64,000 bases of DNA, from IMG/VR virus record IMGVR_UViG_3300029305_004466; one strand, given 5' to 3'. The translations under genes were made by a program, and so were the position numbers. Shown here piece by piece: positions 14,652 through 55,931 of this stretch. This stretch comes from a virus. Taxonomy: Duplodnaviria; Caudoviricetes. Positions within the stretch are counted from its first letter, which is position 1. Each line of letters starts with the position of its first letter. Under the pieces are notes generated by a model. It did no database searches. It was not told the origin of the DNA and was given only the letters and a program-made list of their open reading frames with translations.

Positions 14652-16505
14652 TTATGAACCATCAATGTATATGGTAGCGTTCATTTTACATTTCAGATAA
14701 TTCGTAATGGAATCTCCGAATAAGTTAACTCTAATTGTAACCATGTCACTAACACTACCTTTTGATGTTGAATATATATTGACACCAGTTAAGTCATCAT
14801 GTATATTCTGACAAAGTTTTACGGAGTTCTTGATAAGCATTTCATCAACGACTTTGATTAAGGATTCGTCTTCGATTTTTGCTTTTACTGTATACGAAAT
14901 GTCTTTAATATGTTTTGCTACTATACTTTCAACATTGGATTGTAATATTTGTTGTCTATTAGTATAACAATTTATTACATATTTGTCCATTTCATCATTG
15001 ATTTTATTTACATTATCTTTTATGAGACCGATAATAGCATTGTAATTATCTTTTCCTGAGGATGAAGACTTCTTAGTAGGAGTACGTCCTCCAGAATTTT
15101 TCTCTTTGTTGTTTGTTTCTTTACTTCCTGTACCGCCATTAGCTGAAGCAGTAGCTTTAGCCGTCTGCACATCAAGTTCAGCTTGAAGTTTAAGTGTTTC
15201 TCTCGTAATGAGTTCAACAAATAATTTCTCTCTGTCACCATCAGCAATAGGGTCCATACCAAGTAAGTCACGCATTTCATCTTCAGTAATCGCATTGTGT
15301 TCATATTTATAAATGGCGTGAACTTCTTTCTTGATTTTAACATCTACGTCATTATCGTGGAATTTAAGTTCAGCGATTTGGTCTGGATTAAGTACTGGGT
15401 CATATCCGCCTTCCATTAAGATTTCTTTTACTATGAATGAGTTAAAGAACATCTCAATGATTTTGGTAATAGCACGGATTCTGTCAGCCATTTCTGATGT
15501 CATATTGTCACCAGTAGAACGATTGGCTGTATCACCACGACCCCACATAATAGCAGGAATGCCCATACCAGAGAATACTCTATCTTCCATATACCTTAAA
15601 TATGGTTCTGCGTCAATAACTTTATCAGAAGCAATAGGAGTTATTGTAACTCTTTCTGTAGTAACAATACCACCTTCAACATCCATATTGTTGATTTCTT
15701 CGATAATCTTATCCACTTCCGCTTCCGTACCCGGCTGGTCCTCTGTACCAACTTTTACATGATGGAATGGATAAATATTACGATACATCATTTTAAGAAC
15801 GTTTTCTTCTGCTTGTCTTAATGCTCGTATATCATCAAGGACTGGCACTAAGAAACTTGTTCCGTATGCATTACCTTTTGGTCTTTTGTAATAGAAATGG
15901 ATTACATCTTCAGGATTAAATTCCTGTTCACCTGCATCTGTTTCCTGTTTCCACTTACTAATAACGCCATGCTCATCTCTCATTACAGTCATTGTAGAAG
16001 GATTAGCACAGAAATAACCTACAACAGGTTCTTTTCCTGCAAGCCCTTGAACATTAACACCTTGAGGTAATAAGTTAACGTCATTACTTCTTGACTTAAC
16101 AATCATACAGTTTCCGTATTTAACTAAGTCTTCCGCAATATCCATTAAGAATTGATTTGTCGGAGTACTTGTCGCTTCTGCTATGTATTCAAGCCTAAGC
16201 TTTAAATAGTCAACTGTATTAGTGTCTTTCCCGTAAAAACTATACCCTTCTTTAAAAATCTGGTCAACATATTTATCAACACCTTGACGTACATAAGAAT
16301 CTGTATCGTAGGCATTTTGTATGTCTTCCATATTAAAATCTGGTTCTTCAAAGTCTGTATCATCAGTAGTCTTATAAACAAGCTGTTTAATAAACTCTGA
16401 TGCTAATTCTCTTTGTCCCCCAGAAGAAGCGTCCTTAGAAACAGGTGCTGCGGGAAGGAGTTCTTTGAAAAATGTATTGGCTATGAACCGTTTGATTTTA
16501 TTCAT
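14652..16505 (-). CDS. Portal protein
   Basis: 617 aa; DLVKYGNC, FNPEDVIHF...YGTS, ITEDEMRDLLGMDP; lies between terminase and protease. Confidence 0.85.
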   Translation of the reverse strand: MNKIKRFIANTFFKELLPAAPVSKDASSGGQRELASEFIKQLVYKTTDDTDFEEPDFNMEDIQNAYDTDSYVRQGVDKYVDQIFKEGYSFYGKDTNTVDYLKLRLEYIAEATSTPTNQFLMDIAEDLVKYGNCMIVKSRSNDVNLLPQGVNVQGLAGKEPVVGYFCANPSTMTVMRDEHGVISKWKQETDAGEQEFNPEDVIHFYYKRPKGNAYGTSFLVPVLDDIRALRQAEENVLKMMYRNIYPFHHVKVGTEDQPGTEAEVDKIIEEINNMDVEGGIVTTERVTITPIASDKVIDAEPYLRYMEDRVFSGMGIPAIMWGRGDTANRSTGDNMTSEMADRIRAITKIIEMFFNSFIVKEILMEGGYDPVLNPDQIAELKFHDNDVDVKIKKEVHAIYKYEHNAITEDEMRDLLGMDPIADGDREKLFVELITRETLKLQAELDVQTAKATASANGGTGSKETNNKEKNSGGRTPTKKSSSSGKDNYNAIIGLIKDNVNKINDEMDKYVINCYTNRQQILQSNVESIVAKHIKDISYTVKAKIEDESLIKVVDEMLIKNSVKLCQNIHDDLTGVNIYSTSKGSVSDMVTIRVNLFGDSITNYLKCKMNATIYIDGS

Positions 16506-17585: not shown

Positions 17586-19489
17586 TAAAAAGACCTCCTC
17601 TGGAATGATGGAACTCTTTTATTTTGCCTTCGAACTGGAGTAATACTGATAATACCTTCTTTTTCGGAAGTTTTAATTATCTTTACAAAAGGCTCTTCTT
17701 GGTTTTCACCAATTTCACGGCTCTTAACATGCTCATCTCTTGAATCCAGAGTTCCAATAAATACTGTTTTGATAGAATAAACTTGCTTTAATAAGCTACC
17801 ATACTTTTGCTCAAATAGCAATAGGGCAAGATTCATGGCATCAATTGCGTGTTCATTCTCATCTGTATAGACAGGCATACCAGTACTACTTATGGATTTT
17901 ACTCTATATTCTTCTAATTGAGAAATCATTGATTTATCTGAAGGGTCAAGAATAACTTTACCTTTTTCAAATAAATTAACTGAGTTGTTAACCATGAATG
18001 GCTTAAGGTGTTTCTGGTCTTTTTTCTTAGTATATGGGTCACGAACTTCAATCTTTTGAGAGAATTGATAACCAATAACCTTATCTGCTAAGCCAGTTTC
18101 AGGATGTTCCATACCATATTTATGAAGCATTTCTAATTGTACTTCACCGTAACCACGGTCAATACCTATCCAATCAAACTGGTATTCATCATTCAGTTCT
18201 ATGATTTTGTTCATTGCATTGACGTAAGTAAAATCAGAACGTGGAACTTCTATTCTGAATAACATCTTAAACATAGGAACAATGCGTCCTTCATGGTCTT
18301 GATGGAATCTATCAAGTTCCATGCATACCATATTTGTTGCTGCTGAATATTTATCCCAGTCAACTCCAAGTATTCTAATATTTTGCCCATGCGTTCTTGT
18401 AAGATAAGATTTCCTATCTTCTTTGGACCATTTAGTAATGTATCTATATTTAAGGCGTTCACCTTCCATAATAGCTGCATTGATGAATTTCTTCTGGTAT
18501 ACACCCATTTCTTCTTCACCGAATTCAGCCATAACTTCTTGAGTATATCTCATGTCAGATAATTCATCTCTAATATCTTCAAGATAAGTTTGTTGAGTAT
18601 CTGGATTTATCTTTAATAATTCTTTATTAACGTTGGATGGAGCATATACTTCTGTCCAACCATTACCTTCGCCAATCGCTTTTTCTTCTACTTGATAACC
18701 ACTGAAGCGATTATTTTTAATATCTTCTGCTGTTGGGAAATATCTCTTAGAGGCATTAATACACCAACGGTAATATTCTTCGTGCTTACCAGATGGCGTG
18801 GAAGCACAGATAAGTCTAATACGTTCTGGAGCTTCATTTCTAATATTTAAGATATTCGTAATCTGATTAGAACCTATGTAGTCGCACTCGTCAAGGATAA
18901 GTAAATCTGCTCTTTGACCACGAGTAGAGTTAGCACCGCCAGATGAGTTGTTAGCACCTGCGGTTAAACCTAAAATATTAGAAACAATACCATTAATAGT
19001 AAGGTTTAAATTATGATGTACGTCTCTTGTTATTAATGACTTTAACACCGGAGACATCTCAATCAACTGGTGTAAACGCTTGAAGATTAAGTCAATCTGC
19101 GTTTCATATGGAGTTGCTATAATAATATCGTATTGGTTATTCGGACCTCTATTATATTGTGTGTACGCAAACCATAAAATAAGTACACACATAGAGTCTG
19201 ATTTACCAAGTCTTCGTCCAAGTCTTAATACAAGCTTTTTAGAACGCTTACCTTCTTGGATAATTACATCTTGATAATCTCTAGCTTCCCAGTCAAGATA
19301 AACTTTAGCCCATAATACAGGGTTGTTTGTAATTGTATATTCCAACGCTTCTTTGAAATTTAACCCGTATTGCTTTTGAACAAAATCTACCTTTTTGACT
19401 ATATTCTTATCTAAAGGAATCAAAAGATTCATTATCTGATTGCATTCTATATCATTTAATTGTCCTATTGTTTGTGCTACAGCTGCCAT
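17585..19489 (-). CDS. terL: Terminase large subunit
   Basis: Walker A LGRRLGKS, Walker B LLILDE, ASTP coupling motif, nuclease LGVDW and HAIDA. Confidence 0.92.
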   Translation of the reverse strand: MAAVAQTIGQLNDIECNQIMNLLIPLDKNIVKKVDFVQKQYGLNFKEALEYTITNNPVLWAKVYLDWEARDYQDVIIQEGKRSKKLVLRLGRRLGKSDSMCVLILWFAYTQYNRGPNNQYDIIIATPYETQIDLIFKRLHQLIEMSPVLKSLITRDVHHNLNLTINGIVSNILGLTAGANNSSGGANSTRGQRADLLILDECDYIGSNQITNILNIRNEAPERIRLICASTPSGKHEEYYRWCINASKRYFPTAEDIKNNRFSGYQVEEKAIGEGNGWTEVYAPSNVNKELLKINPDTQQTYLEDIRDELSDMRYTQEVMAEFGEEEMGVYQKKFINAAIMEGERLKYRYITKWSKEDRKSYLTRTHGQNIRILGVDWDKYSAATNMVCMELDRFHQDHEGRIVPMFKMLFRIEVPRSDFTYVNAMNKIIELNDEYQFDWIGIDRGYGEVQLEMLHKYGMEHPETGLADKVIGYQFSQKIEVRDPYTKKKDQKHLKPFMVNNSVNLFEKGKVILDPSDKSMISQLEEYRVKSISSTGMPVYTDENEHAIDAMNLALLLFEQKYGSLLKQVYSIKTVFIGTLDSRDEHVKSREIGENQEEPFVKIIKTSEKEGIISITPVRRQNKRVPSFQRRSF

Positions 19490-31557: not shown

Positions 31558-32133
31558 ATGAAGTTATATGATTTTGAAGAAAGTTTTGTAGTTGCATTAA
31601 GAGAATACACTAGTGAAGAGACTAAGGGCTCTTATGATACCGATGGTTTAAATATTTTTGATTTCAGCACTGAGACATTCAATATGAATTCTTATATTGC
31701 TGGTAACAAAATATCTGAGCATCATTACATTTTTGGATATACCAATCGCATGAGTGGTCTTTTGTATCTGGAAGAAGGTAAGCGTGTTTATAATTGCCGT
31801 AATTATGATGGCAAATTGTTTATTGCTTTTGTAACAACAAAGCATCACAAAATCAGTGATGAAATTTATGGCTTTAAGGCAACAGTTAATAAGGTTATAT
31901 TCTATGGTTCTGACAATTCCTATAGACTTGGTGAGCATAATTATCCTGTATTTGCCGGAGACCATATTGAATTCTATAGAGCTCATCAGAGTTATACAGA
32001 AAAACAGACTGATATCCCAGATTGTATTTGGGAGGATAAGACGAAAACACGTTACGTATGGGGTAAACCATTTATTTCTAAGATGCACGAAGATGTAGTT
32101 ATTGATTTCAATGATAATAAGGAGGTGAAATAA
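31558..32133 (+). CDS. Hypothetical protein
   Basis: Same leader; 191 aa. Confidence 0.55.
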   Translation: MKLYDFEESFVVALREYTSEETKGSYDTDGLNIFDFSTETFNMNSYIAGNKISEHHYIFGYTNRMSGLLYLEEGKRVYNCRNYDGKLFIAFVTTKHHKISDEIYGFKATVNKVIFYGSDNSYRLGEHNYPVFAGDHIEFYRAHQSYTEKQTDIPDCIWEDKTKTRYVWGKPFISKMHEDVVIDFNDNKEVK

Positions 32134-33705: not shown

Positions 33706-36700
33706 ATGAGTATTTTATTAACAATCAACGAATTACGTAGCAAGGTGTGGAACACAGTAAAGAATGCAGGTAAGCATACATGGAAGGATATTTGCTCCAT
33801 GAACCGTAAAGAGCTTGAGGATTTAAACGTTCCTAGCTATTTAGAGAAGTTTGCTGAATCCGAAACTATTGGTGGTGTTACTTTTACTGGTAAGAGACTT
33901 TCTCCTGCTATTGTTGAGGAGAACTACAAGAACATGTGCTCTAAGCTTTCTCAGTTTGAGATTGACAGAGCAAAGGCAGAGATTGAGGCTTCCGCTAAGA
34001 AGGCAGGATGTACACCTAACTTAACATGGCAGGAAATCTGGGCAACTCATAAGGATTTTCAGCACCGTGTATCTCACCAGAAGAGAGAGATTACTTCCCA
34101 GACTAAGGTGTGTGGATATAATATCACTCCAGATGAAAAGCGTGAGTATTACACAATGGATTTAAGCAAGAAAATGGAAGTTAAGGACATTGACCGCAAT
34201 ACCAATATTAAAGATTGGTTATTTGATGTTGCAGTTCCTTATGCTGATTTAATGGAAACAGCAGAGAATCTGGGTGTTAACTTAGTTACTTTTGACCCAG
34301 AAGGTTTTGAAGTTCCAGAGTGTGACAATAAAGACCAGATGCTTAAGCAGTTGTTAACTCATGCTTACAAGTACGGTATTATTGATGTATCTACTGGCGA
34401 TAAGTATTTCCCAGTAGGTTTATCTGCTTCCAAGGCACGTTCTGGTGGTGTTATTTGGCTTGCAAATACAGGTAACTGGGCAAACATGGAGAAGTTCCGT
34501 GCTCAGGTTCTTCATGTTACAGACGAAGAGTATGCAAACATGAAGAAAGACCCATGTGTTATCGCTAAGTTCGAGACTGGTTCTATCGGTATGAGAACAT
34601 CTAGCGTTATTAATGTATCTAAAGCTGGTGCTAAGCTTCGTGGTGATAACAGCGTTTTAAGCAACATCAGATGTAAAGTTGTTCCAGATATTGTTGCTGA
34701 AATCCCTCTTACAACATTAGAACCGAATAAGGGTGCTGTAGGTGCATTAAAGCCATTTGAATTCGTTATGAGCGAAAGAATATATGAAGTGAATTATTCG
34801 GACGGTTGTAGCTTAATTAAGTTACAGACATTCGTTGATATTCTTCATCAGGCTGGTGAAATTACTGATAAGCAGTATCAGACATTCACAACAAAGTGGC
34901 GTGAATATGGCTTTGATTCCAAGATGCTTATTGAGGATGAAGAATTATACAGATTCCTCACATCTAAGGATTTCAAATCCGTTATGCAGGTTCGTTTCTT
35001 CGGTGGTGTAAAGGGTATGGTTATCCCTGTTGCTGAAATGGACGGAGATGAAAGACTTGCTGAAGTGGACATGCTTGTTTTCAAGAAGTCTGCTAAGTAT
35101 ATCTCTAAAGACGCTCCGTTTGAAGTTATTAACTTCTCCAAAGCTAAAAAGGGTATGGCTATGCTGAACTTCCAGTTCATTCAGGCTACTGTTACAGACG
35201 GCAACGTACTTATTAAGGGTGCTCAGAGAGCTTTTGAAATCGTAAAGAATGCTCTTAATGACCCAGCTGGTGCTTTAAAGTTCATCGCAGGCGTTAGAAA
35301 CTTAAACGATGACGGTGAAGAATTAGCTACCAAGATTGCAAATGACTTAGAAGTAGAGCCACGTTTAGTTACTGAACATTACCATCATGCTCAGCTTCTT
35401 GAAAAGGTTAAGAAGTATGTGCATAACGTAGGTTTTGGTAAGATTCCTGTTGACGGTGCATTCCAGTATATTGTAACAGACCCATTAAACCTTTATCACA
35501 AGGCTATGGGTGATGAATTTGAATCTGCTCTTAATGCAGGTGAAATTTATTACAATGGTATTGACGGTATTCAGGCTGGTATGTGGAGAAGCCCAATGAT
35601 TCACTACAGCGAGCCTCAGAGAGCTCTTTGTAAGCATGTTGATTACCTCTGGATGTATAAGGACATTATTGTTCTTAATCCAAGAGATGCCATTGCACCT
35701 GCTCTCGGTGGTGCCGACTATGACGGAGACAAATTCTTACTTTTATTGGATAAAAATGACAATTCCTTTGAAAGTGATTTTGTTAAACAGATTCAGATGC
35801 CGGGTTATGTTATCTATGATGAAGGCAATACTGCTCCTAAGGTAGATAACAATATTGAAAACCGTATTAAGTATTATGTTGCTTTATCCACTCCTAACCG
35901 TACAGGACAGATTACAAACTGGGCAACCTGTATCACAGACTTAATGATTAACGAACAGTTAAAAGGCAATATGAAAGCCTACAACTGGTACAAGAGAGTT
36001 CTTGTTCGTTTAAGATTTGCTCAGGGTTGGGAAATCGACCTTCCTAAGACTGGTATCAGTGCAGACGGTCCACAGGGCGACATGCTTCCTACAAAGTATT
36101 GTAAGCCTTCTATGAAGCCACAGTGGTTTGTAGACATGAGAACCTTCGAAGGTAGAGAAGTTTCTACAACTGATAAAGACGGTAATAATATTGTTTATAC
36201 TGGCAACTCTCCAATGGAACAGTTACATCAGTATGCTATTCAGTTCTGGAATCAGATTGTTGCAGGATATATTGTAACACCTAGAACTATGCTTGATGTA
36301 TTCCGTGCAACCTTTAATCAGGTAGAAAGCAATGCTTTTGAATCCATTAAGGGTCAGGTTATTGAATATGAACGCCTTTACAGAACTGAAAGTAAGAATA
36401 TTAACGGCTTACTTGATGCAGGTGTTATTTCCGAGCAGGAACAGAAAGATATGTTCGAAAAGCTGATTGAAACACATCACACATCTCTTAATTCCTTACT
36501 GGGTGGCAATGTAACTACAGATGTTATTGCATATGCTTGTTACTATGCCGCAAACTTTAGAAAGGATAAGAATGATAATAATACCAAGGTTACTGGTAAG
36601 AGAAGTTATGGTTGGGTATGCTATTATGCTGAAACCTTAGCTCTTTTATACCGTAATAATAATGGTATGAGCCTTGTTGCACTTCCAGACAAGGAAATGG

Positions 36701-45336: not shown

Positions 45337-46004
45337 TACATATTGTATGTTAAGAAACATACATGAATAACCATGTGCATAAGATATCTAATCAATATCG
45401 TCATGGATAAGCCGTATGATAGAGAGAATCATGTGACTGATAGGTTGCATAGATGCTCCTTGTATTAGTAGTAATGTTAATACAGAAGAGGGGAACCCCT
45501 CAACATCAAGGTTTAGTGTATGTTTATACTGTTTGTTAGTGCAGAATGCTTTTGGCAGGAGCAATAGACGCTTACCCGAAAGGTAAGAAGAATCCATTAA
45601 AGCGGTAGCCTGAGAAACTATCACACCTAATGGAACTCTCAAACAATCCTGTTTGTCGTGAATGGAAGAAATTCCAGTATAACAAAAGCATCGCTGGTAG
45701 TAGCCCAAGACAATAAAAGATTTTATTTAATGAAAAAGTGAATCATATAAATAAAAACATTCTGAATGATGGGTGAGGCTTGGAGGTATCAGTCCTCTAT
45801 GAGTTTAAGGTTATAGCTAAGTATGACGAGTATGAGATGCCCTTCGAGGAGCATGTGATACCGCATGGCTGGTTGGCTAGGGTAAGAAGCTTACAGATGA
45901 CGATTTGTAGGTTCAGACTTATTCTCTCATTCGCATAATAAGCATAAGGTATAAACAATAGGATGAAGGTCCATTCTTGTATGTTTCTTAGGGTACAATA
46001 TGTA
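45337..46004 (+). ncRNA. Large ornate structured RNA (~670 nt; ROOL/GOLLD-like candidate)
   Basis: No credible ORF. 5' TACATATTGTA and TAAGAAACATACA (45337-45363) pair perfectly with 3' TGTATGTTTCTTA and TACAATATGTA (45978-46004). Follows a promoter and precedes the tRNA cluster. Confidence 0.7.
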
Positions 46005-46156
46005 CCTTGCGACTTTGAATTCGTGTTAAATGCGAGTTCCTTTCAAAGGTTTTTTCCAATAACATTCTAGTGTATAGACCTCTGTTTTCGGACATGTTCG
46101 CACACTGCTATTAGGGTTTTTGCATAGCTTAGGCTTTGGTAGCAGGAGAAAAACCT

Positions 46157-46228
<72 letters not shown>

Positions 46229-46543
46229 TTATCCTCTTAGTAACTTTGCAGAGTTATCTAAGAAAAAGACATAATTAAAGTCTTAGTAAAGTCCTGCAAG
46301 ACTGAAAAGACAATGACAACAACCTTGTGTCTTAGTGGTTCTAATTTGGTTGTAGATGTCAAAGGATTCTGTATCATGATGTGCTGACCTACCAATTTGT
46401 AGGGCTATGATGAGAAGTCTATAGTGGGACTCCTTCTCCAAGTCAGGCTATGTGCAGATGGTAAAAGAGTTGAACCTCACCTAACAGTTGCAGTTTGGCA
46501 GTTTGAATGGCAGCAGGGTGTTAATTAAGAAAAAACTGTCAAT

Positions 46544-46615
46544 GGCTCCTTGGTCAAGTGGTTAAGACATCGCCCTTTCACGGCGGTAACGCTGGTTCAA
46601 ACCCAGTAGGAGTCA
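46544..46615 (+). tRNA. tRNA-Glu(TTC)
   Basis: Cloverleaf; TCGCC-CT TTC AC-GGCGG. Confidence 0.92.
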
Positions 46616-46730
46616 TTTGGAGAAGAGGTAGGTAAGGTGGCAGGGATGGTTCCCATTGTGTTAGCAGTCGGTCAGAACGCTTTGACGGCAGTACCGCAGC
46701 TTAAAAATCAGTTTAGCTTCTCCAATACAT

Positions 46731-46804
46731 AGCGGGGTGGAGCAGTCCGGAAGCTCGTCAGGCTCATAACCTGAAGGTCGCAAGTTCAAATCTTGCCCCC
46801 GCCT
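46731..46804 (+). tRNA. tRNA-Met(CAT), initiator-like
   Basis: Cloverleaf; unpaired 1:72 (A-C); TCAGG-CT CAT AA-CCTGA. Confidence 0.88.
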
Positions 46805-46881
46805 CTGTAAGTTAATCCATTGACTTACACCTCACCTTATACCGCAGGCGTTCTTTGTAGCTTTCTCCTGCGGTATATAAT

Positions 46882-46967
46882 GGTAAGATGTCCGAGTGGC
46901 TTAAGGAGCTGGTCTTGAAAACCAGTGATGCGTAACTGCACCGTGAGTTCGAATCTCACTCTTACCG
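46882..46967 (+). tRNA. tRNA-Ser(TGA)
   Basis: Cloverleaf with long variable arm; CTGGT-CT TGA AA-ACCAG. Confidence 0.92.
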
Positions 46968-47182
46968 TTCTAAGTTCGAAAGGTCTTAGTTAAAAAACCT
47001 TAAACGTAAGGATTACAGAGGGCTATGGGTTGACGACCATAGAGCTTACGTTGTGAGAAAACCACAGGTGGCTAATCTGCTTTGTTCTATTAGCATGGAA
47101 AAATAGGAGAGTTAATTGAGCAATTTGTCTCACACAATATTGCTTAGGGCGGCAACCTCATGTCAAAGAAATAGCCAAACAC

Positions 47183-47268
47183 GGAGATTTACTCAAGTGG
47201 TTGAAGAGGAGGACTTGCTAAGTCTTTAGTATCGTAAGGTAGCGAAGGTTCGAATCCTTCAATCTCCG
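47183..47268 (+). tRNA. tRNA-Ser(GCT)
   Basis: Cloverleaf with long variable arm; AGGAC-TT GCT AA-GTCTT. Confidence 0.9.
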
Positions 47269-47514
47269 CTGAGCTGAGGTGCTAGAACTCAACTCTATGT
47301 AATAGACACACCTGTAAAAGATGTTTTGAGATTTAAGACTTCTTTTTGAAAGAAGCCACTGAATCAAAGTACATATCTACCTTGACCAGCTAGGTACGAC
47401 ATCAGTAGGAGGAAGTTACATAGATATGTTGGCAGTACGAAGAACTGTCTGCTTGGAAAATGAAGAATGATGGTCATTCCCGTTTCTACCATTTCTGTAC
47501 GTTAACAGAATTAA

Positions 47515-47588
47515 CGAGATGTAGGTCAGCTTGGTAGACCGCTTGATTTGGGTTCAAGAAGTCGCACGTTCGAATCGTGTCATCTCGA
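47515..47588 (+). tRNA. tRNA-Pro(TGG)
   Basis: Cloverleaf; CTTGA-TT TGG GT-TCAAG. Confidence 0.9.
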
Positions 47589-47664
47589 CTAGCCAGAACA
47601 GAAGACATTTCGAGTTCGGCAAGAAAAAACTACATAGTCTTCATTAAGAAAGGAGGAATGGTAT

Positions 47665-47868
47665 ATGATTATTATTGTTGGCGGATTGCTGTGTTGTATG
47701 CTGTTCTTCCTTGAAGAACGTGTAGGCACAATTACTATTATGAATGGAGTGCCAGAGATTAGTCTAACAGCGGTTAAGTGGCTTTTGAGGTTTAGTCACA
47801 TAAATTCTAACTACTGGCATCCTGAGCCCAGAGTGCTCACGACAGCTTTTGTAGGCGGATTTATATGA
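47665..47868 (+). CDS. Small hydrophobic protein
   Basis: AAGGAGG RBS; 67 aa inside the tRNA island. Confidence 0.4.
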   Translation: MIIIVGGLLCCMLFFLEERVGTITIMNGVPEISLTAVKWLLRFSHINSNYWHPEPRVLTTAFVGGFI

Positions 47869-48182
47869 ATAATGACCTCAAAGAAACCTACTACATTGTT
47901 GAAGTGAGCGTTTAATTATAGAATATAGAATATAAACTAAATTAACAGTCAACACCGACATTATGGCAGTGTCACAGTGAAGAAGGAAAACTTATAAAAC
48001 CCGTTAAGATATTAATCCCCACATATGATAAATTAGGGATTGTTCACTTAAATGGTTAGAAAGAAAGAATAAAATATGTTGACAAAGAGAGACGGCTTAA
48101 TGCCATTAAGCCATAGAACGAATAGAATGAATATTATGTAAACCGCCCCGGTCCCGGTTATGATGTCGGGGCGGTATTTTTT

Positions 48183-48294
48183 GGGACGATAGTTTAATTG
48201 GAAAAATACTGGCATTAGCAATAGCCCGGGATTGCTAGAGACGGAGTTGGAACACCGTATCACCAGAGACAGGAGTTCAATTCTCCGAGTCCCA
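48183..48294 (+). ncRNA. tRNA-like RNA with anticodon loop replaced by two hairpins
   Basis: GGGAC/GTCCC acceptor stem, D-arm, GGAG-TTCAATT-CTCC T-arm; CTGG/CCAG stem encloses ~50 nt. Confidence 0.65.
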
Positions 48295-48610
48295 CTTTCT
48301 CTTTCTGGGTTCCTGAATAGGAGTAGGCACTCATAATGCTTAGAATTCCTTTGTAAGAGAATATTAAAACTTCCATTATTGATACTGAGTATATTGTAAA
48401 CCTTGTTAATTGATGGACGAGGAGCAATTGTTATCTTTATCAATACAAAACCGATTTGATTCGGATAGGTAAATTGCCGAGGCAAGGTAAGTTATTAGTT
48501 TTGGTAGTCTAATAATAAAGAAGATGTGCTAAGAACAAGGATGGCGGTTGCATGATTAGCCATGGACAATGATTATGCAATGAGGCAGCAAATCGGTCTT
48601 AGCGACCTAT

Positions 48611-48684
48611 GGACCTTTAGCTCAGTTGGTTAGAGCGTCCGGCTCATAACCGGATGGTCGTAGGTTCGAGCCCTACAAGGTCCA
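48611..48684 (+). tRNA. tRNA-Ile2/Met(CAT)
   Basis: GGACCTTTAGCTCAGTTGGTTAGAGC...CT CAT AA...; body resembles Firmicute lysidine tRNA-Ile2. Confidence 0.88.
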
Positions 48685-48890
48685 CTATACCGAGGGATGG
48701 TAGACTGATATAACAGTGGATGACAGCAAAGTTTCGTCTGTCGAAGGGATAGGGGCAATACATGTTACCGCCTATCGTGTAGGTATAATATTACAAAGTG
48801 TATTCGAATGAGTATTCTGTTTAACGGAAGAAAGTCAATCTTAAATGTGAAATATCTATTGACGAGGATATAGTAACAGCTTTGTACTGT

Positions 48891-48960
48891 AGGACATTAG
48901 CTTAATGGTAAAGCACACGACTGATAATCGTGGTCAGCAGTTCGATTCTGTTATGTTCTA
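48891..48960 (+). tRNA. tRNA-Ile(GAT)
   Basis: CACGA-CT GAT AA-TCGTG; short variable loop. Confidence 0.8.
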
Positions 48961-49108
48961 TTCGGTGAAAAGCTGATAGATTACTGTCGATAGGGAGGCA
49001 GTTGCCCAGTGAAGGTAGCCGCCAGCTAACGCAGAGTAAATATGAGTATGGAGAACAAGTCCCCTATGATTTGCCATAAGCATACGAAATGGTTAGCTGG
49101 ATTAACCT

Positions 49109-49201
49109 CGGAGAGTAGCTCAGTGGGCAGAGCTTCTTGCTTAGAATGGGTAACTGCAAGTGAAATCCCGTTGGTCATGAGTTCGAATCTCATCTCTCCG
49201 T
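49109..49201 (+). ncRNA. tRNA-like RNA with pseudoknot in place of the anticodon arm
   Basis: CGGAGAG/CTCTCCG acceptor, GCTC/GAGC D-arm, ATGAG-TTCGAAT-CTCAT T-arm; middle CTTGC/GCAAG stem whose loop AATGGG can pair with CCCGTT. Confidence 0.7.
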
Positions 49202-51884: not shown

Positions 51885-51957
51885 GGGTCACTAGCTCAGT
51901 AGGTAGAGCACTAGACTTTTAATCTAGGTGTCACGGGTTCGAACCCCGTGTGGCTCA
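51885..51957 (+). tRNA. tRNA-Lys(TTT)
   Basis: Cloverleaf; CTAGA-CT TTT AA-TCTAG. Confidence 0.92.
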
Positions 51958-52836: not shown

Positions 52837-53343
52837 ATGGCGATAATGGGTGAATGGATTCCGCATTGTGGATTCAAATCAAAAGCTGATGCTCACAAAG
52901 TAGCGTTAGAGCTTGAAAGCATCGGATATGATAATGGCACCGATGAATTTAATACACAAGAAATTGTAGATTTTGCACGTAATAATCCCACTTGTGAAAT
53001 TCATAAGTTATTAGAATGGGACGATAAAATAGCTGCTGAAGCTCATCGTAATGAGCAAGCGAGAGAGATTCTTCGTTTTCTTAAAATCACTGTTGTAACA
53101 ACACAGGAAGACAATCCAGTATTTCAGCCAACAAAAGTAAGATACTTTGTTAATACTGGTAAACATGATGGAACATATAAGAAAACTGAAGTCGTATTCC
53201 AGAATGCTAGTGAAGCAGACAGAATTATGGAAGGTATGAGGCGTGATGCTGAGAATTTTATTAACAGATATCAGATTTATGCTCATCTTAATCCGAATAT
53301 TCCTGCTGCTATTCAGGCATTACAAGCAGTAATCAATCCTTAA
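52837..53343 (+). CDS. Phage protein (IH..LEWDD..AAE..R..QAR motif); candidate accessory of the repeat/RAMP system
   Basis: 168 aa; ends immediately before the pentamer array. Confidence 0.6.
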   Translation: MAIMGEWIPHCGFKSKADAHKVALELESIGYDNGTDEFNTQEIVDFARNNPTCEIHKLLEWDDKIAAEAHRNEQAREILRFLKITVVTTQEDNPVFQPTKVRYFVNTGKHDGTYKKTEVVFQNASEADRIMEGMRRDAENFINRYQIYAHLNPNIPAAIQALQAVINP

Positions 53344-53353
53344 TAAGTTGATG

Positions 53354-53952
53354 TTTTCTCTTGCATATATATTGGCTTAAATGCCAATGACAATAAGGCA
53401 ATTCATTGCACATAATTTCATAACAGGACAGCACAAAATACGTCAACATAGGCTAAGACATGTTAGCTCACATGGCTCTTTTGAGCCAATATATATGTAA
53501 GAGAGGACAGGACAACTCAGTGCATTTTACCACAATGAATGACAATCTATAACATGACAGAGGGGCGAGGACACTCGCCCCATTTTTATAAGTATAAATA
53601 TTGGCTTTAATTAGTCAATGAATATATTACAATACAAATGCACGATAGCTTAATACTGAACAGAATAGCATAATGCATGATACAATAAAACACATGGCTC
53701 TTAGAGCCTTTATTTATGCTTATAAATAGTAGGATTATGAATACATATATTGGCTTTAATGGTCAATGAAAACAAAATAAGTAAGCTGATTATTGTACAG
53801 AACAGCCCAGCCCACTACAAAACAGTACAGGACAAAACAAATGGCTCTTAGAGCCTTTATATGTGTTCATAAACACAAGCACAAAGACAGCAGAATACAT
53901 GTCAGTGCAACATAGGATATTACAAAACATTTAAATCCTATCAAAAGATAGG
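53354..53952 (+). repeat. Array of hairpin-framed pentamer (N-Y-A-N-N) tracts; candidate guide RNAs
   Basis: Three cassettes with outer stem, ATTGGCTT..CAATG hairpin, tract and ATGGCTCTT(T/A)GAGCC hairpin (53354-53505, 53585-53726, 53735-53872), plus two free tracts (53507-53561, 53887-53936). A at unit position 3 in 16/16, 11/11, 13/14 and 10/10 units of tracts A, B, D, E. Confidence 0.85.
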
Positions 53953-53970
53953 TAGAAGGAGACACACATT

Positions 53971-54645
53971 ATGGCAACAAAGAAAAACACAACCCCAGAA
54001 GTACAGGTAGTAGAAACTGAATTACAGAATAAGATTCGTTTCGCTACAGCAACAATCACCATTCAGGGTGATAGCGATTTAATTCTTAACAAGATGAGAG
54101 ACAGTACTACACAGCAGCTTGCAGATAAGCAGGAAGGTAAAGTACAGGGTACTAAGGCTCCTGTTAATATGTATGAGCATCTTGTTGGTTCTATTCACTG
54201 GTTAAAGGGTGAAGAAACTAACTATACAGAAGAAGGATGGAAAAATGCATTAGCAAACAATACTCCGGGTTATCCATCTTCTGGTTTAAAGAAAGCTCTT
54301 TGCGATGCAGTTGTTCGTGTATTAGGTGAAACATATAGCACGAAATTTAATGCAAATATGCAGATTCTTGATAGTTTCCTGCCGATTAAGTTTGCGGCAA
54401 GCACATATGATAAGTCTTTATTTAGTCCACAGAAGGGCAGTCCTGTCCTTTGTTACAGAAATGTATTCAAAGACTGGGAAACAACTTTCACAATCAAGTA
54501 CATTCCAGATAACTATTCTCTGGACCAGATTCTTGAAGTTATCAATTGTGCAGGCTTTGCATGTGGTATTGGTAGCCACAGACCATCTAGTAAGGGCGGT
54601 TCCAATGGTATGTTCCATGTAGCAAAGGTTGTAGAAATGGTATAG
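53971..54645 (+). CDS. RAMP/Cas7-like RNA-binding protein (Vipr-like)
   Basis: N-terminal ITIQGDSDLILN strand, YPSSGLKKAL helix (RAMP PxSxxKG-like) and C-terminal Gly loop AGFACGIGSHRPSSKGGSNGMFHV; abuts the pentamer array. Confidence 0.75.
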   Translation: MATKKNTTPEVQVVETELQNKIRFATATITIQGDSDLILNKMRDSTTQQLADKQEGKVQGTKAPVNMYEHLVGSIHWLKGEETNYTEEGWKNALANNTPGYPSSGLKKALCDAVVRVLGETYSTKFNANMQILDSFLPIKFAASTYDKSLFSPQKGSPVLCYRNVFKDWETTFTIKYIPDNYSLDQILEVINCAGFACGIGSHRPSSKGGSNGMFHVAKVVEMV

Positions 54646-54652
54646 GTGTTTT

Positions 54653-55111
54653 ATGGCTGATTCAAAGAAAAGATTATATTCAAGAGAAACCATTAACAAG
54701 CATTACAGCGATTTTATTGAACAGGTAAAAACTTATAATGAAAAAGGCTTTCCTGATAAAATACTTGATGTTGTTATTTTTGGTTCGTACATTAATACAA
54801 ACAACCCTAAAATGCACGACTTGGATATAGGAATAAGATTTGAAAAACATCCAGAACTGTATGAGGATTACAAAAAGAAAATGTCAAAAGAGCAATTGGA
54901 GAAATATGCAAACAGATGTTTTTTGGACAGATTAGTAATACCTCATACAGAGGAAATTAGATTTTTAAAAGCAAAGCATGGAACTATTTCTCTATATGAT
55001 ATTGATTATGACAAAGAATATATCTTTAATGATAAACATTTGTACATAGTAAAAAATGGCGAGCTAATAGAAGATGCATTACCTATTCCTTTGAATTTGC
55101 AAACCAAATAA
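54653..55111 (+). CDS. Minimal nucleotidyltransferase (Pol-beta superfamily)
   Basis: VVIFGSY...DLDIGI motif. Confidence 0.75.
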   Translation: MADSKKRLYSRETINKHYSDFIEQVKTYNEKGFPDKILDVVIFGSYINTNNPKMHDLDIGIRFEKHPELYEDYKKKMSKEQLEKYANRCFLDRLVIPHTEEIRFLKAKHGTISLYDIDYDKEYIFNDKHLYIVKNGELIEDALPIPLNLQTK

Positions 55112-55858: not shown

Positions 55859-55931
55859 TGGGCTATCGCCAAGCGGTAAGGCACAGCACTTTGACTGCTG
55901 CATTTCGTTGGTTCAAATCCAACTAGCCCAG
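55859..55931 (+). tRNA. tRNA-Gln(TTG)
   Basis: Cloverleaf; CAGCA-CT TTG AC-TGCTG. Confidence 0.92.

Follow-up and report, generated by a model that had tools for sequence, protein, structure and literature searches.

VIPR (Viral Interference Programmable Repeat), described in 2026, silences genes under the guidance of RNA; its best-studied representatives, of type II, are those of Escherichia phage SUSP1 and a Pseudomonas fulva prophage (bioRxiv 10.64898/2026.04.26.720920,.720927, 2026.10.15.759431). A minimal Cas7-like protein acts with RNAs composed of (GGY+NN) pentamers, one protomer per repeat, and the NN dinucleotides pair with DNA under a 1-nt-skip rule that leaves out every third target base. 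In nature the targets lie in coding sequences belonging to rival mobile elements, the skipped base being the wobble position, and the published threshold for a target is an NN identity of at least 80% (bioRxiv 10.64898/2026.04.26.720920,.720927). The published set comprises 664-667 Vipr proteins of seven types, and the published guide RNA (vrRNA) is a discrete species of ~100 nt that co-purifies with Vipr. The natural targets published are a satellite recombinase, prophage regulators and other vipr genes; a methylase is not among them. Earlier descriptions (2026) were confined to GGY-type guides in Proteobacterial phages.

We describe here a locus of this general kind in a 64 kb stretch of viral DNA (the window), where tandem 5-nt units, each consisting of a 3-nt handle and two hypervariable bases, lie in an intergenic array beside a gene for a minimal RAMP protein. 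Since that protein has a Cas7/Csm3-like RAMP fold, the locus fits VIPR. Its handle is N-Y-A, mostly ACA, both in the window and in its relatives; this is neither GGY nor one of the published G-ending variants, and the locus is therefore classed as a VIPR variant. The subject of this report is one of the tracts, tract B, which is very probably a VIPR-type guide.

The likeness to described VIPR loci extends to several features. [quoted passage not shown] The reading of targets, on either strand, skips one base at the codon wobble position and gives in-frame matches of 10-15 consecutive units; the codons targeted in rival mobile elements are conserved and important for catalysis, and different guides converge on one element. 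However, the first base of the handle is free and its last base is always A, whereas published handles are GGY, NNNGG, YNNNG and NNNNG. Three of the guides are enclosed in cassettes with stems of 25-30 bp and two inner hairpins, and tract B, which follows such a cassette, ends in a plain hairpin terminator rather than in a pseudoknot tail as in SUSP1. The constant 5' GG GG units also appear to take part in pairing here, and the phage that carries the locus is a jumbo phage (~210 kb) of Firmicute communities in the gut.

Class 1 CRISPR systems (type I Cascade and type III Csm/Cmr) share the Cas7/Csm3 fold of the RAMP protein, and VIPR resembles them in having one protomer per RNA repeat and a thumb-like element that interrupts the guide-target duplex at regular intervals. 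In contrast to these systems, the locus has no CRISPR array, spacer acquisition genes or other cas genes, and two of every five guide bases pair rather than five of every six. VIPR guides are moreover hard-wired and evolve by point mutation. Coordinates of the locus and of matched targets are collected in Table 1.

Table 1. Features of the locus in the window, with targets matched by two guides
Feature	Coordinates	Strand	Remarks
168-aa gene directly upstream of array	52837..53343	+	phrog_15946; candidate accessory (vap-like) gene
Cassette 1: outer stem around tract A	53352..53509	+	inverted repeat I1 = 53352-53381 with 53480-53509; tract A (53386-53470) is the neighbouring guide
Constant leader ATGTA AGAGA GGACA GGACA	53495..53514	+	same in 7 orthologues, including L009 with a different guide
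Tract B, proposed guide	53507..53561	+	11 pentamer units, NYA handle + NN; read directly
3' hairpin (8 bp, 7 GC) and T-run	53562..53588	+	terminator and/or structured 3' tail of guide RNA
Cassettes 2 and 3 (tracts C, D) and tract E	53585..53934	+	tract E just upstream of RAMP gene
224-aa Vipr-like RAMP gene	53971..54645	+	presumed guide-binding protein
Polymerase targets of tract A (53386-53470)	G407 near 36141; G408 near 31928; PV036412 near 41182; PV036439 near 9985		
L009 guide	L009:1476-1545		capsid targets L019:4550-5743(-), G407 near 17858, G408 near 14749, PV036412 near 22360

The RAMP protein and its neighbourhood

An AlphaFold2 model of the RAMP protein (pLDDT 85.6) was compared with the PDB using Foldseek, and the top 50 structures were all Csm3, Cmr4 or Cas7 subunits (best Csm3/Cas7 match E 3.8e-7, probability 1.00). 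A Pfam search gave no match for either this gene or the 168-aa gene upstream of the array. We found 81 homologues of the RAMP protein, many of them on ~210 kb contigs from gut metagenomes, and two relatives that are complete measure 208 and 213 kb. Five residues (G195, F196, G199, G201 and G213) in a glycine-rich stretch close to the C-terminus are invariant in 41 homologues. Annotated relatives in phages are limited to hypothetical proteins from Gordonia phages (26% identity, E 4e-9), for example UmaThurman gp39 (NC_031249.1:32720-33340). A distant RAMP clade (43-46% identity, L165-L242; L166:1360-1460) occurs on gut phage contigs of ~50-90 kb with shorter arrays and a stricter RCA handle, and its guides match the same Heliusvirales-like targets.

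The gene upstream of the array, 166-168 aa in length, is syntenic in the relatives L001, L002, L004 and L007. Just after the RAMP gene, a gene at 54653-55111 encodes a small protein of the nucleotidyltransferase fold (PF01909, 4.4e-6), a position that is not kept in all relatives. The VIPR locus is preceded, at a distance of a few kb, by a ROOL RNA (305 bits) and eleven tRNA genes (45347-49201, 51885-51957, 55859-55931).

Relatives have similar intergenic arrays, and in the 165 distinct tracts collected from 91 related loci the NN positions vary while the YA positions are constant. A loose scan of the window found five period-5 tracts, all on the + strand and within 53386-53934. The pentamer periodicity is not a composition effect. 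A strict test, which asks for 11 consecutive units ending in A with at least 10 of them in YA, was passed by tracts A and B only, and by none in 40 first-order Markov surrogates. In contrast to the other guides, tract E (53880-53934) hardly differs in any of the close relatives, even at handle position 3, which suggests a regulatory or self-directed role.

Structure and conservation of tract B

Read directly from 53507 to 53561, tract B consists of the units ACA-GG ACA-AC TCA-GT GCA-TT TTA-CC ACA-AT GAA-TG ACA-AT CTA-TA ACA-TG ACA-GA. The final base of the handle is A in 11 of 11 units, preceded by a pyrimidine in 10. An earlier reading of the letters alone (the original prediction) had given the same 11 dinucleotides, GG AC GT TT CC AT TG AT TA TG GA. 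The codon reading of their reverse complement, S-(Q/H)-Y-(I/M)-(Q/H)-(I/M)-G-(N/K)-T-V-P, is arithmetically correct, and the skip logic used in that prediction is the published mechanism (bioRxiv 10.64898/2026.04.26.720920,.720927). The unit before its proposed start is also GG, giving a GG GG pair. The tract begins where the 3' arm of the 30-nt inverted repeat enclosing tract A ends, and the constant leader up to 53509 doubles as the 3' arm of the outer stem of cassette 1.

Tract B had further been said to have a terminator-like 3' end, and a hairpin at 53562-53581, folding at -18.6 kcal/mol, is indeed present and followed by ATTTTT. A GC-rich hairpin occupies this position in 7/7 orthologues (-12.6 to -19.3 kcal/mol), with stem sequences that differ but compensate. 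A scan of 53344-53970 at Rfam gathering thresholds found no known RNA family. In two bovine-gut RNA libraries, low-depth assembled contigs from a related strain cover the region corresponding to 53372-53554 (cassette 1 and tract B); their ends and strand are unreadable and DNA carry-over is possible, so these contigs cannot prove transcription.

Seven positional orthologues of tract B were parsed. Those of the window, L164, L163, L007 and L001 have one common core, AC GT TT CC A(T/C) TG (A/G)T TA, whereas L004 has GC instead of GT and L009 carries a different guide. Another relative, L002, has no tract B. The GG GG pair and the final GA beside the hairpin are constant across all the orthologues, that of L009 included. 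Within the pentamers, positions 1-2 are conserved, position 3 is free (ATGAA, ACAAA, ATTTA, ACTTA) and positions 4-5 stay YA, which fixes the register that the original prediction had assumed. This pattern is as expected if positions 1-2 are read and positions 4-5 are held by the protein. Most relatives (L164, L163, L007, L001 and the bovine-gut strain compared) have a 6-nt unit, TTTCTA, in place of the regular TTTTA at 53525-53529 of the window. Single 6-nt units also occur in other tracts, which suggests that the filament of protein accommodates a bulge of one base in the handle.

Methylase motif X as a candidate target

C5-cytosine DNA methylases (PF00145) end in motif X (...Q-x-G-N-A/S-V-P...), and the decoded guide corresponds to this motif as it stands in real genes. 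The evidence leans modestly towards the reading that tract B targets motif X in rival phages or host defence islands, as originally proposed. Matches reach 23/24 in methylases, and those in genomes fall mostly in motif X; the proposal had nevertheless not foreseen a competing match to tail-fibre genes (see below).

The exact 11-unit R pattern occurs in three viral contigs, in each case within motif X of a C5-methylase (PF00145). The gapped search that had been suggested thus bore out the expected location in viruses (3/3), whereas in 596 Gb of prokaryotic genomes the literal 11-unit R pattern had no match. A 10-unit pattern had 24 matches in the same genomes, 23 of them in motif X and all with GCN, in keeping with the expectation that matches would fall in methylases. 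The best methylase match, in L101, reads SQYIQIGNAVPP and scores 23/24 over 12 units (PF00145 at 3.3e-82). Its sole mismatch is the one-base T-for-A difference that had been pointed out beforehand, the predicted U·G. At the 22/24 level there are 12 further sites, of which 11 are methylases, including those of two Ruminococcus flavefaciens strains. The Ruminococcus flavefaciens methylase reads AQYIQIGNAVPP at the matched motif; that of strain 007c (L261) scores 22/24 (PF00145 at 2.5e-57).

Shuffled guides run on individual contigs and a reversed-pattern control served as nulls. The matches exceed shuffled controls, as the original prediction required: the best site scores 23/24 in the contig G409 against a shuffled maximum of 17, and in the gut contig G408 motif X is the contig-wide best site for every tract-B orthologue, above the shuffled maxima (20/24 versus 17 for the window's guide). 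Allowing up to 3 mismatches in 24, a search of 401 Clostridia genomes gave two matches, both in motif X, versus one with the reversed pattern; with up to 1 mismatch in 18, a search of 251 Clostridia genomes gave four matches, one of them meaningful. Numbers this small do not decide between the candidate targets.

The best methylase matches occur in both host restriction-modification and phage contexts. L101 is a provirus fragment in which the methylase lies beside an HhH-GPD glycosylase and a PLD-family nuclease, and L261:44-7999 is a DISARM-like island with a DEAD helicase, an MZB/DUF1998 protein, the C5-methylase and an SNF2 helicase. No C5-methylase (PF00145) was found in the two complete jumbo-phage relatives, and within the 64 kb window no self-match of tract B rises above shuffles.

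The window's guide specifies ACN (Thr) where the methylases found have GCN (Ala), and full Watson-Crick complementarity to methylases is therefore not reached, G standing where the guide U would require A. Scans of viral, genome and metagenome contigs turned up no methylase with the literal ACN pattern; over 10 units, the exact Thr pattern has only two matches in metagenome contigs, identical to each other, non-coding and with an in-frame stop. For the window's guide, Vipr would thus have to tolerate an rU·dG wobble at every methylase site, a tolerance that is not reported in the VIPR preprints (bioRxiv 10.64898/2026.04.26.720920,.720927). The U is kept in five related lineages, which probably represents one shared ancestral state.

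GCN is specified by the L004 lineage only. Its guide has C for U and so matches GNAV without a wobble. The 8-unit core of L004 has at least 119 viral matches; ~115 lie in motif X (YKQ[IM]GNAV), no tail fibre is among them, and with the constant GG GG included the guide matches YKQIGNAVPP at 20/20. Extended to 11 units so as to include the Leu codon, it has no viral match. For the core of the window's guide with G for A at the Thr/Ala codon, there are 27 matches in IMG/VR, eight in C5-methylases and 11 from a family of 131-aa proteins. This family (L080, L086, L090-L092, L095, L099 and L103-L105), which has no Pfam assignment, contains YMQMGNAV, matched by the tract-B core at 15/16, and lies on viral contigs of 31-36% GC that come mostly from the dataset of the Vipr relatives.

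Guide convergence on Heliusvirales-like phages

We scanned whole contigs with the 165 distinct guide tracts from the 91 loci, using shuffled guides as the null. Two methylase-bearing gut contigs, G407 and G408, have 14 and 12 guide sites, versus 0-2 with shuffled guides, and carry two or three C5-methylase genes each. Genes tiled by these sites include those for the family A polymerase and the capsid protein. Tract A of the window matches the polymerase at 22/22, extending in G407 to 15 consecutive codons (GMFQFYGANRTGRWA). Guides from at least seven other Vipr-bearing phages tile the same 500 bp of the polymerase gene.

The guide in the tract-B slot of L009 matches genes for HK97-type major capsid proteins (PF05065) in frame at 10/11 units (20/22), with a chance expectation of ~6e-6 in a 3.5-Mb local set. 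The match is in the guide sense, GGYLVP[DE]EY (GGYLVPDEYD), and includes the constant GG GG. Together the polymerase and capsid matches indicate that the skip code works for the NYA guide family.

The G408 polymerase shares 86% identity with its counterpart in phage NatCom_43819 and 75% with the one in Ruminococcus phage NatCom_28274; both phages belong to Ca. Heliusvirales and are themselves convergent guide targets. Guides of the NYA family thus converge on Heliusvirales-like gut phages of ~45-59 kb, carriers of C5-methylases among them. The two contigs with the best methylase matches, G409 and G410, are not matched by other guides, and neither of the two named Heliusvirales phages has a significant tract-B site (17/24, the null level).

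Alternative explanations

The most serious rival places the real target in phage tail fibres, at a Y-(I/M)-Q-I-G-K-T-V motif in the C-terminal tip domain (~135 aa, ending ...TYEAA). Only 8-9 variable units would then pair, and the likeness to motif X would be a one-base coincidence. We consider this unlikely, although the literal 8-unit core speaks for it: among 69 matches in IMG/VR, none is in a methylase and 37 are in frame in one tail-fibre domain family, all at the same place ~105-112 aa from the C-terminus and reading Y(I/M)QIGKTV. Three tail-fibre genes match the nine variable units at 18/18 with no wobble, and one tail-fibre-like gene (L246) reaches 22/24. Variants of the guide in relatives also find this family, with YTQIGKTV in ~35 of 42 matches and YIQVGKTV in ~7 of 14. 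However, the same changes (I to T and I to V) are found in methylases too; being common to both families they do not discriminate, and we have withdrawn variant tracking as support for tail fibres. No tail-fibre gene is matched by the L004 orthologue, none of the 37 matches comes from the dataset that holds most of the Vipr relatives, and the tail-fibre loci are mostly at 40-69% GC, versus 35.4% for the window. In five complete or nearly complete tail-fibre contigs, sites of other guides are no more frequent than those of shuffled guides. A guide-sense reading of tract B, G-G-T-V-F-P-I-W-I-Y, was rejected, as it occurs only in antisense frames of tail-fibre genes and in one small repeated ORF.

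The flanks of the core bear on the same choice. Among methylases (n=110) and the tail-fibre family (n=56), respectively, the specified TC at -2 is present at a frequency of 0.19 versus 0.16, CA at -1 at 0.40 versus <0.05, CC at +1 at 0.83 versus 0, and CC at +2 at 0.36 versus 0. The tail-fibre flanks are thus at chance level; CC never occurs at +1 or +2, and K/R stands where the guides specify Q/H, L or Y. The GG GG units, being constant, may serve as scaffold alone, although they are part of the capsid match of the L009 guide; if neither they nor the final GA pair, tail-fibre genes match at 18/18 and methylases at 17/18. The wobble, the best-matching contigs that other guides leave unmatched, the null-level tract-B scores in the two named Heliusvirales phages and this 18/18 together hold our preference for the methylase target to a level only a little better than even. 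Two further readings seem less probable still. Tract B may be a guide of broad or dual range without a single intended target, in which U pairs with A or G so as to cover both GN(A)V and GK(T)V, or any gene with the motif. At the NN level the two motifs differ by one base, and both families pass the published threshold of at least 80% NN identity; we nevertheless judge this reading improbable, as convergence is seen only on the methylase-bearing phage group. Very improbable, in our view, is a tract B without any target, as a degenerate or trailing piece of cassette 1 or a transcribed spacer before the terminator, whose matches would reflect a common motif. Tract B does lie outside the stem-enclosed format of tracts A, C and D, and L002 manages without it. 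But its NN positions are conserved across lineages while the free handle position varies, a spacer would not be expected to match, in frame and over 10 to 12 codons, the motif that a gene family conserves best, and the guide in the L009 slot has its own independent capsid match.

Proposed mechanism

The explanation that we favour, with somewhat better than even confidence, is that tract B and the Vipr protein are aimed at methylase motif X. It builds on the observed repeat anatomy, RAMP fold, NN conservation pattern, in-frame matches and guide convergence; from these we infer that the RNA is expressed and processed, that the protein binds it, that the wobble is tolerated and that silencing is the outcome. 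Tract B would form the variable part of a vrRNA of the ~210 kb gut jumbo phage. Copies of the adjacent Cas7-like Vipr protein would bind one pentamer each, hold the N-Y-A handle and present the two bases that follow it. The dinucleotides would pair with double-stranded DNA, with every third target base skipped, so that the guide would read the first two positions of the codons in a coding sequence and block its transcription. On the coding strand of motif X, tract B would read S-Q-Y-(I/M)-Q-(I/M)-G-N-A-V-P-P, with 11 of 12 units fully paired and one rU·dG wobble where the Ala codon stands. The target is likely to be carried by the ~45 kb Heliusvirales-like phages of gut Firmicutes, at which other NYA guides are aimed too, and also by methylases in proviral restriction-modification or DISARM-like islands.

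Implications

In this locus, which belongs to jumbo phages from Firmicute communities of the gut, the noncontiguous VIPR code operates with another handle, NYA. The codons at which its guides are directed are the best conserved ones in the polymerase, capsid and probably methylase genes of the abundant Ca. Heliusvirales. Tract B offers a clean natural test case both for the tolerance of rU·dG wobbles by Vipr and for the part that constant units play in target choice.

A more far-reaching idea, which we regard as doubtful, is that the guide serves as a counter-defence or epigenetic weapon of the phage, with a Vipr filament on motif X shutting off C5-methylase operons. If so, restriction-modification or DISARM-like islands of the host would be silenced, as in Ruminococcus flavefaciens, where the methylase lies between a DrmA/DrmB-like pair and an SNF2 helicase, and the progeny DNA of rival Heliusvirales-like phages would be left unmethylated and exposed to restriction. 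The fixed 5' GG-GG anchor would then amount to a built-in, PAM-like requirement for CCNCC beside the target. A methylase target, if real, would add a new class of natural VIPR targets and link RNA-guided silencing with the restriction-modification arms race.
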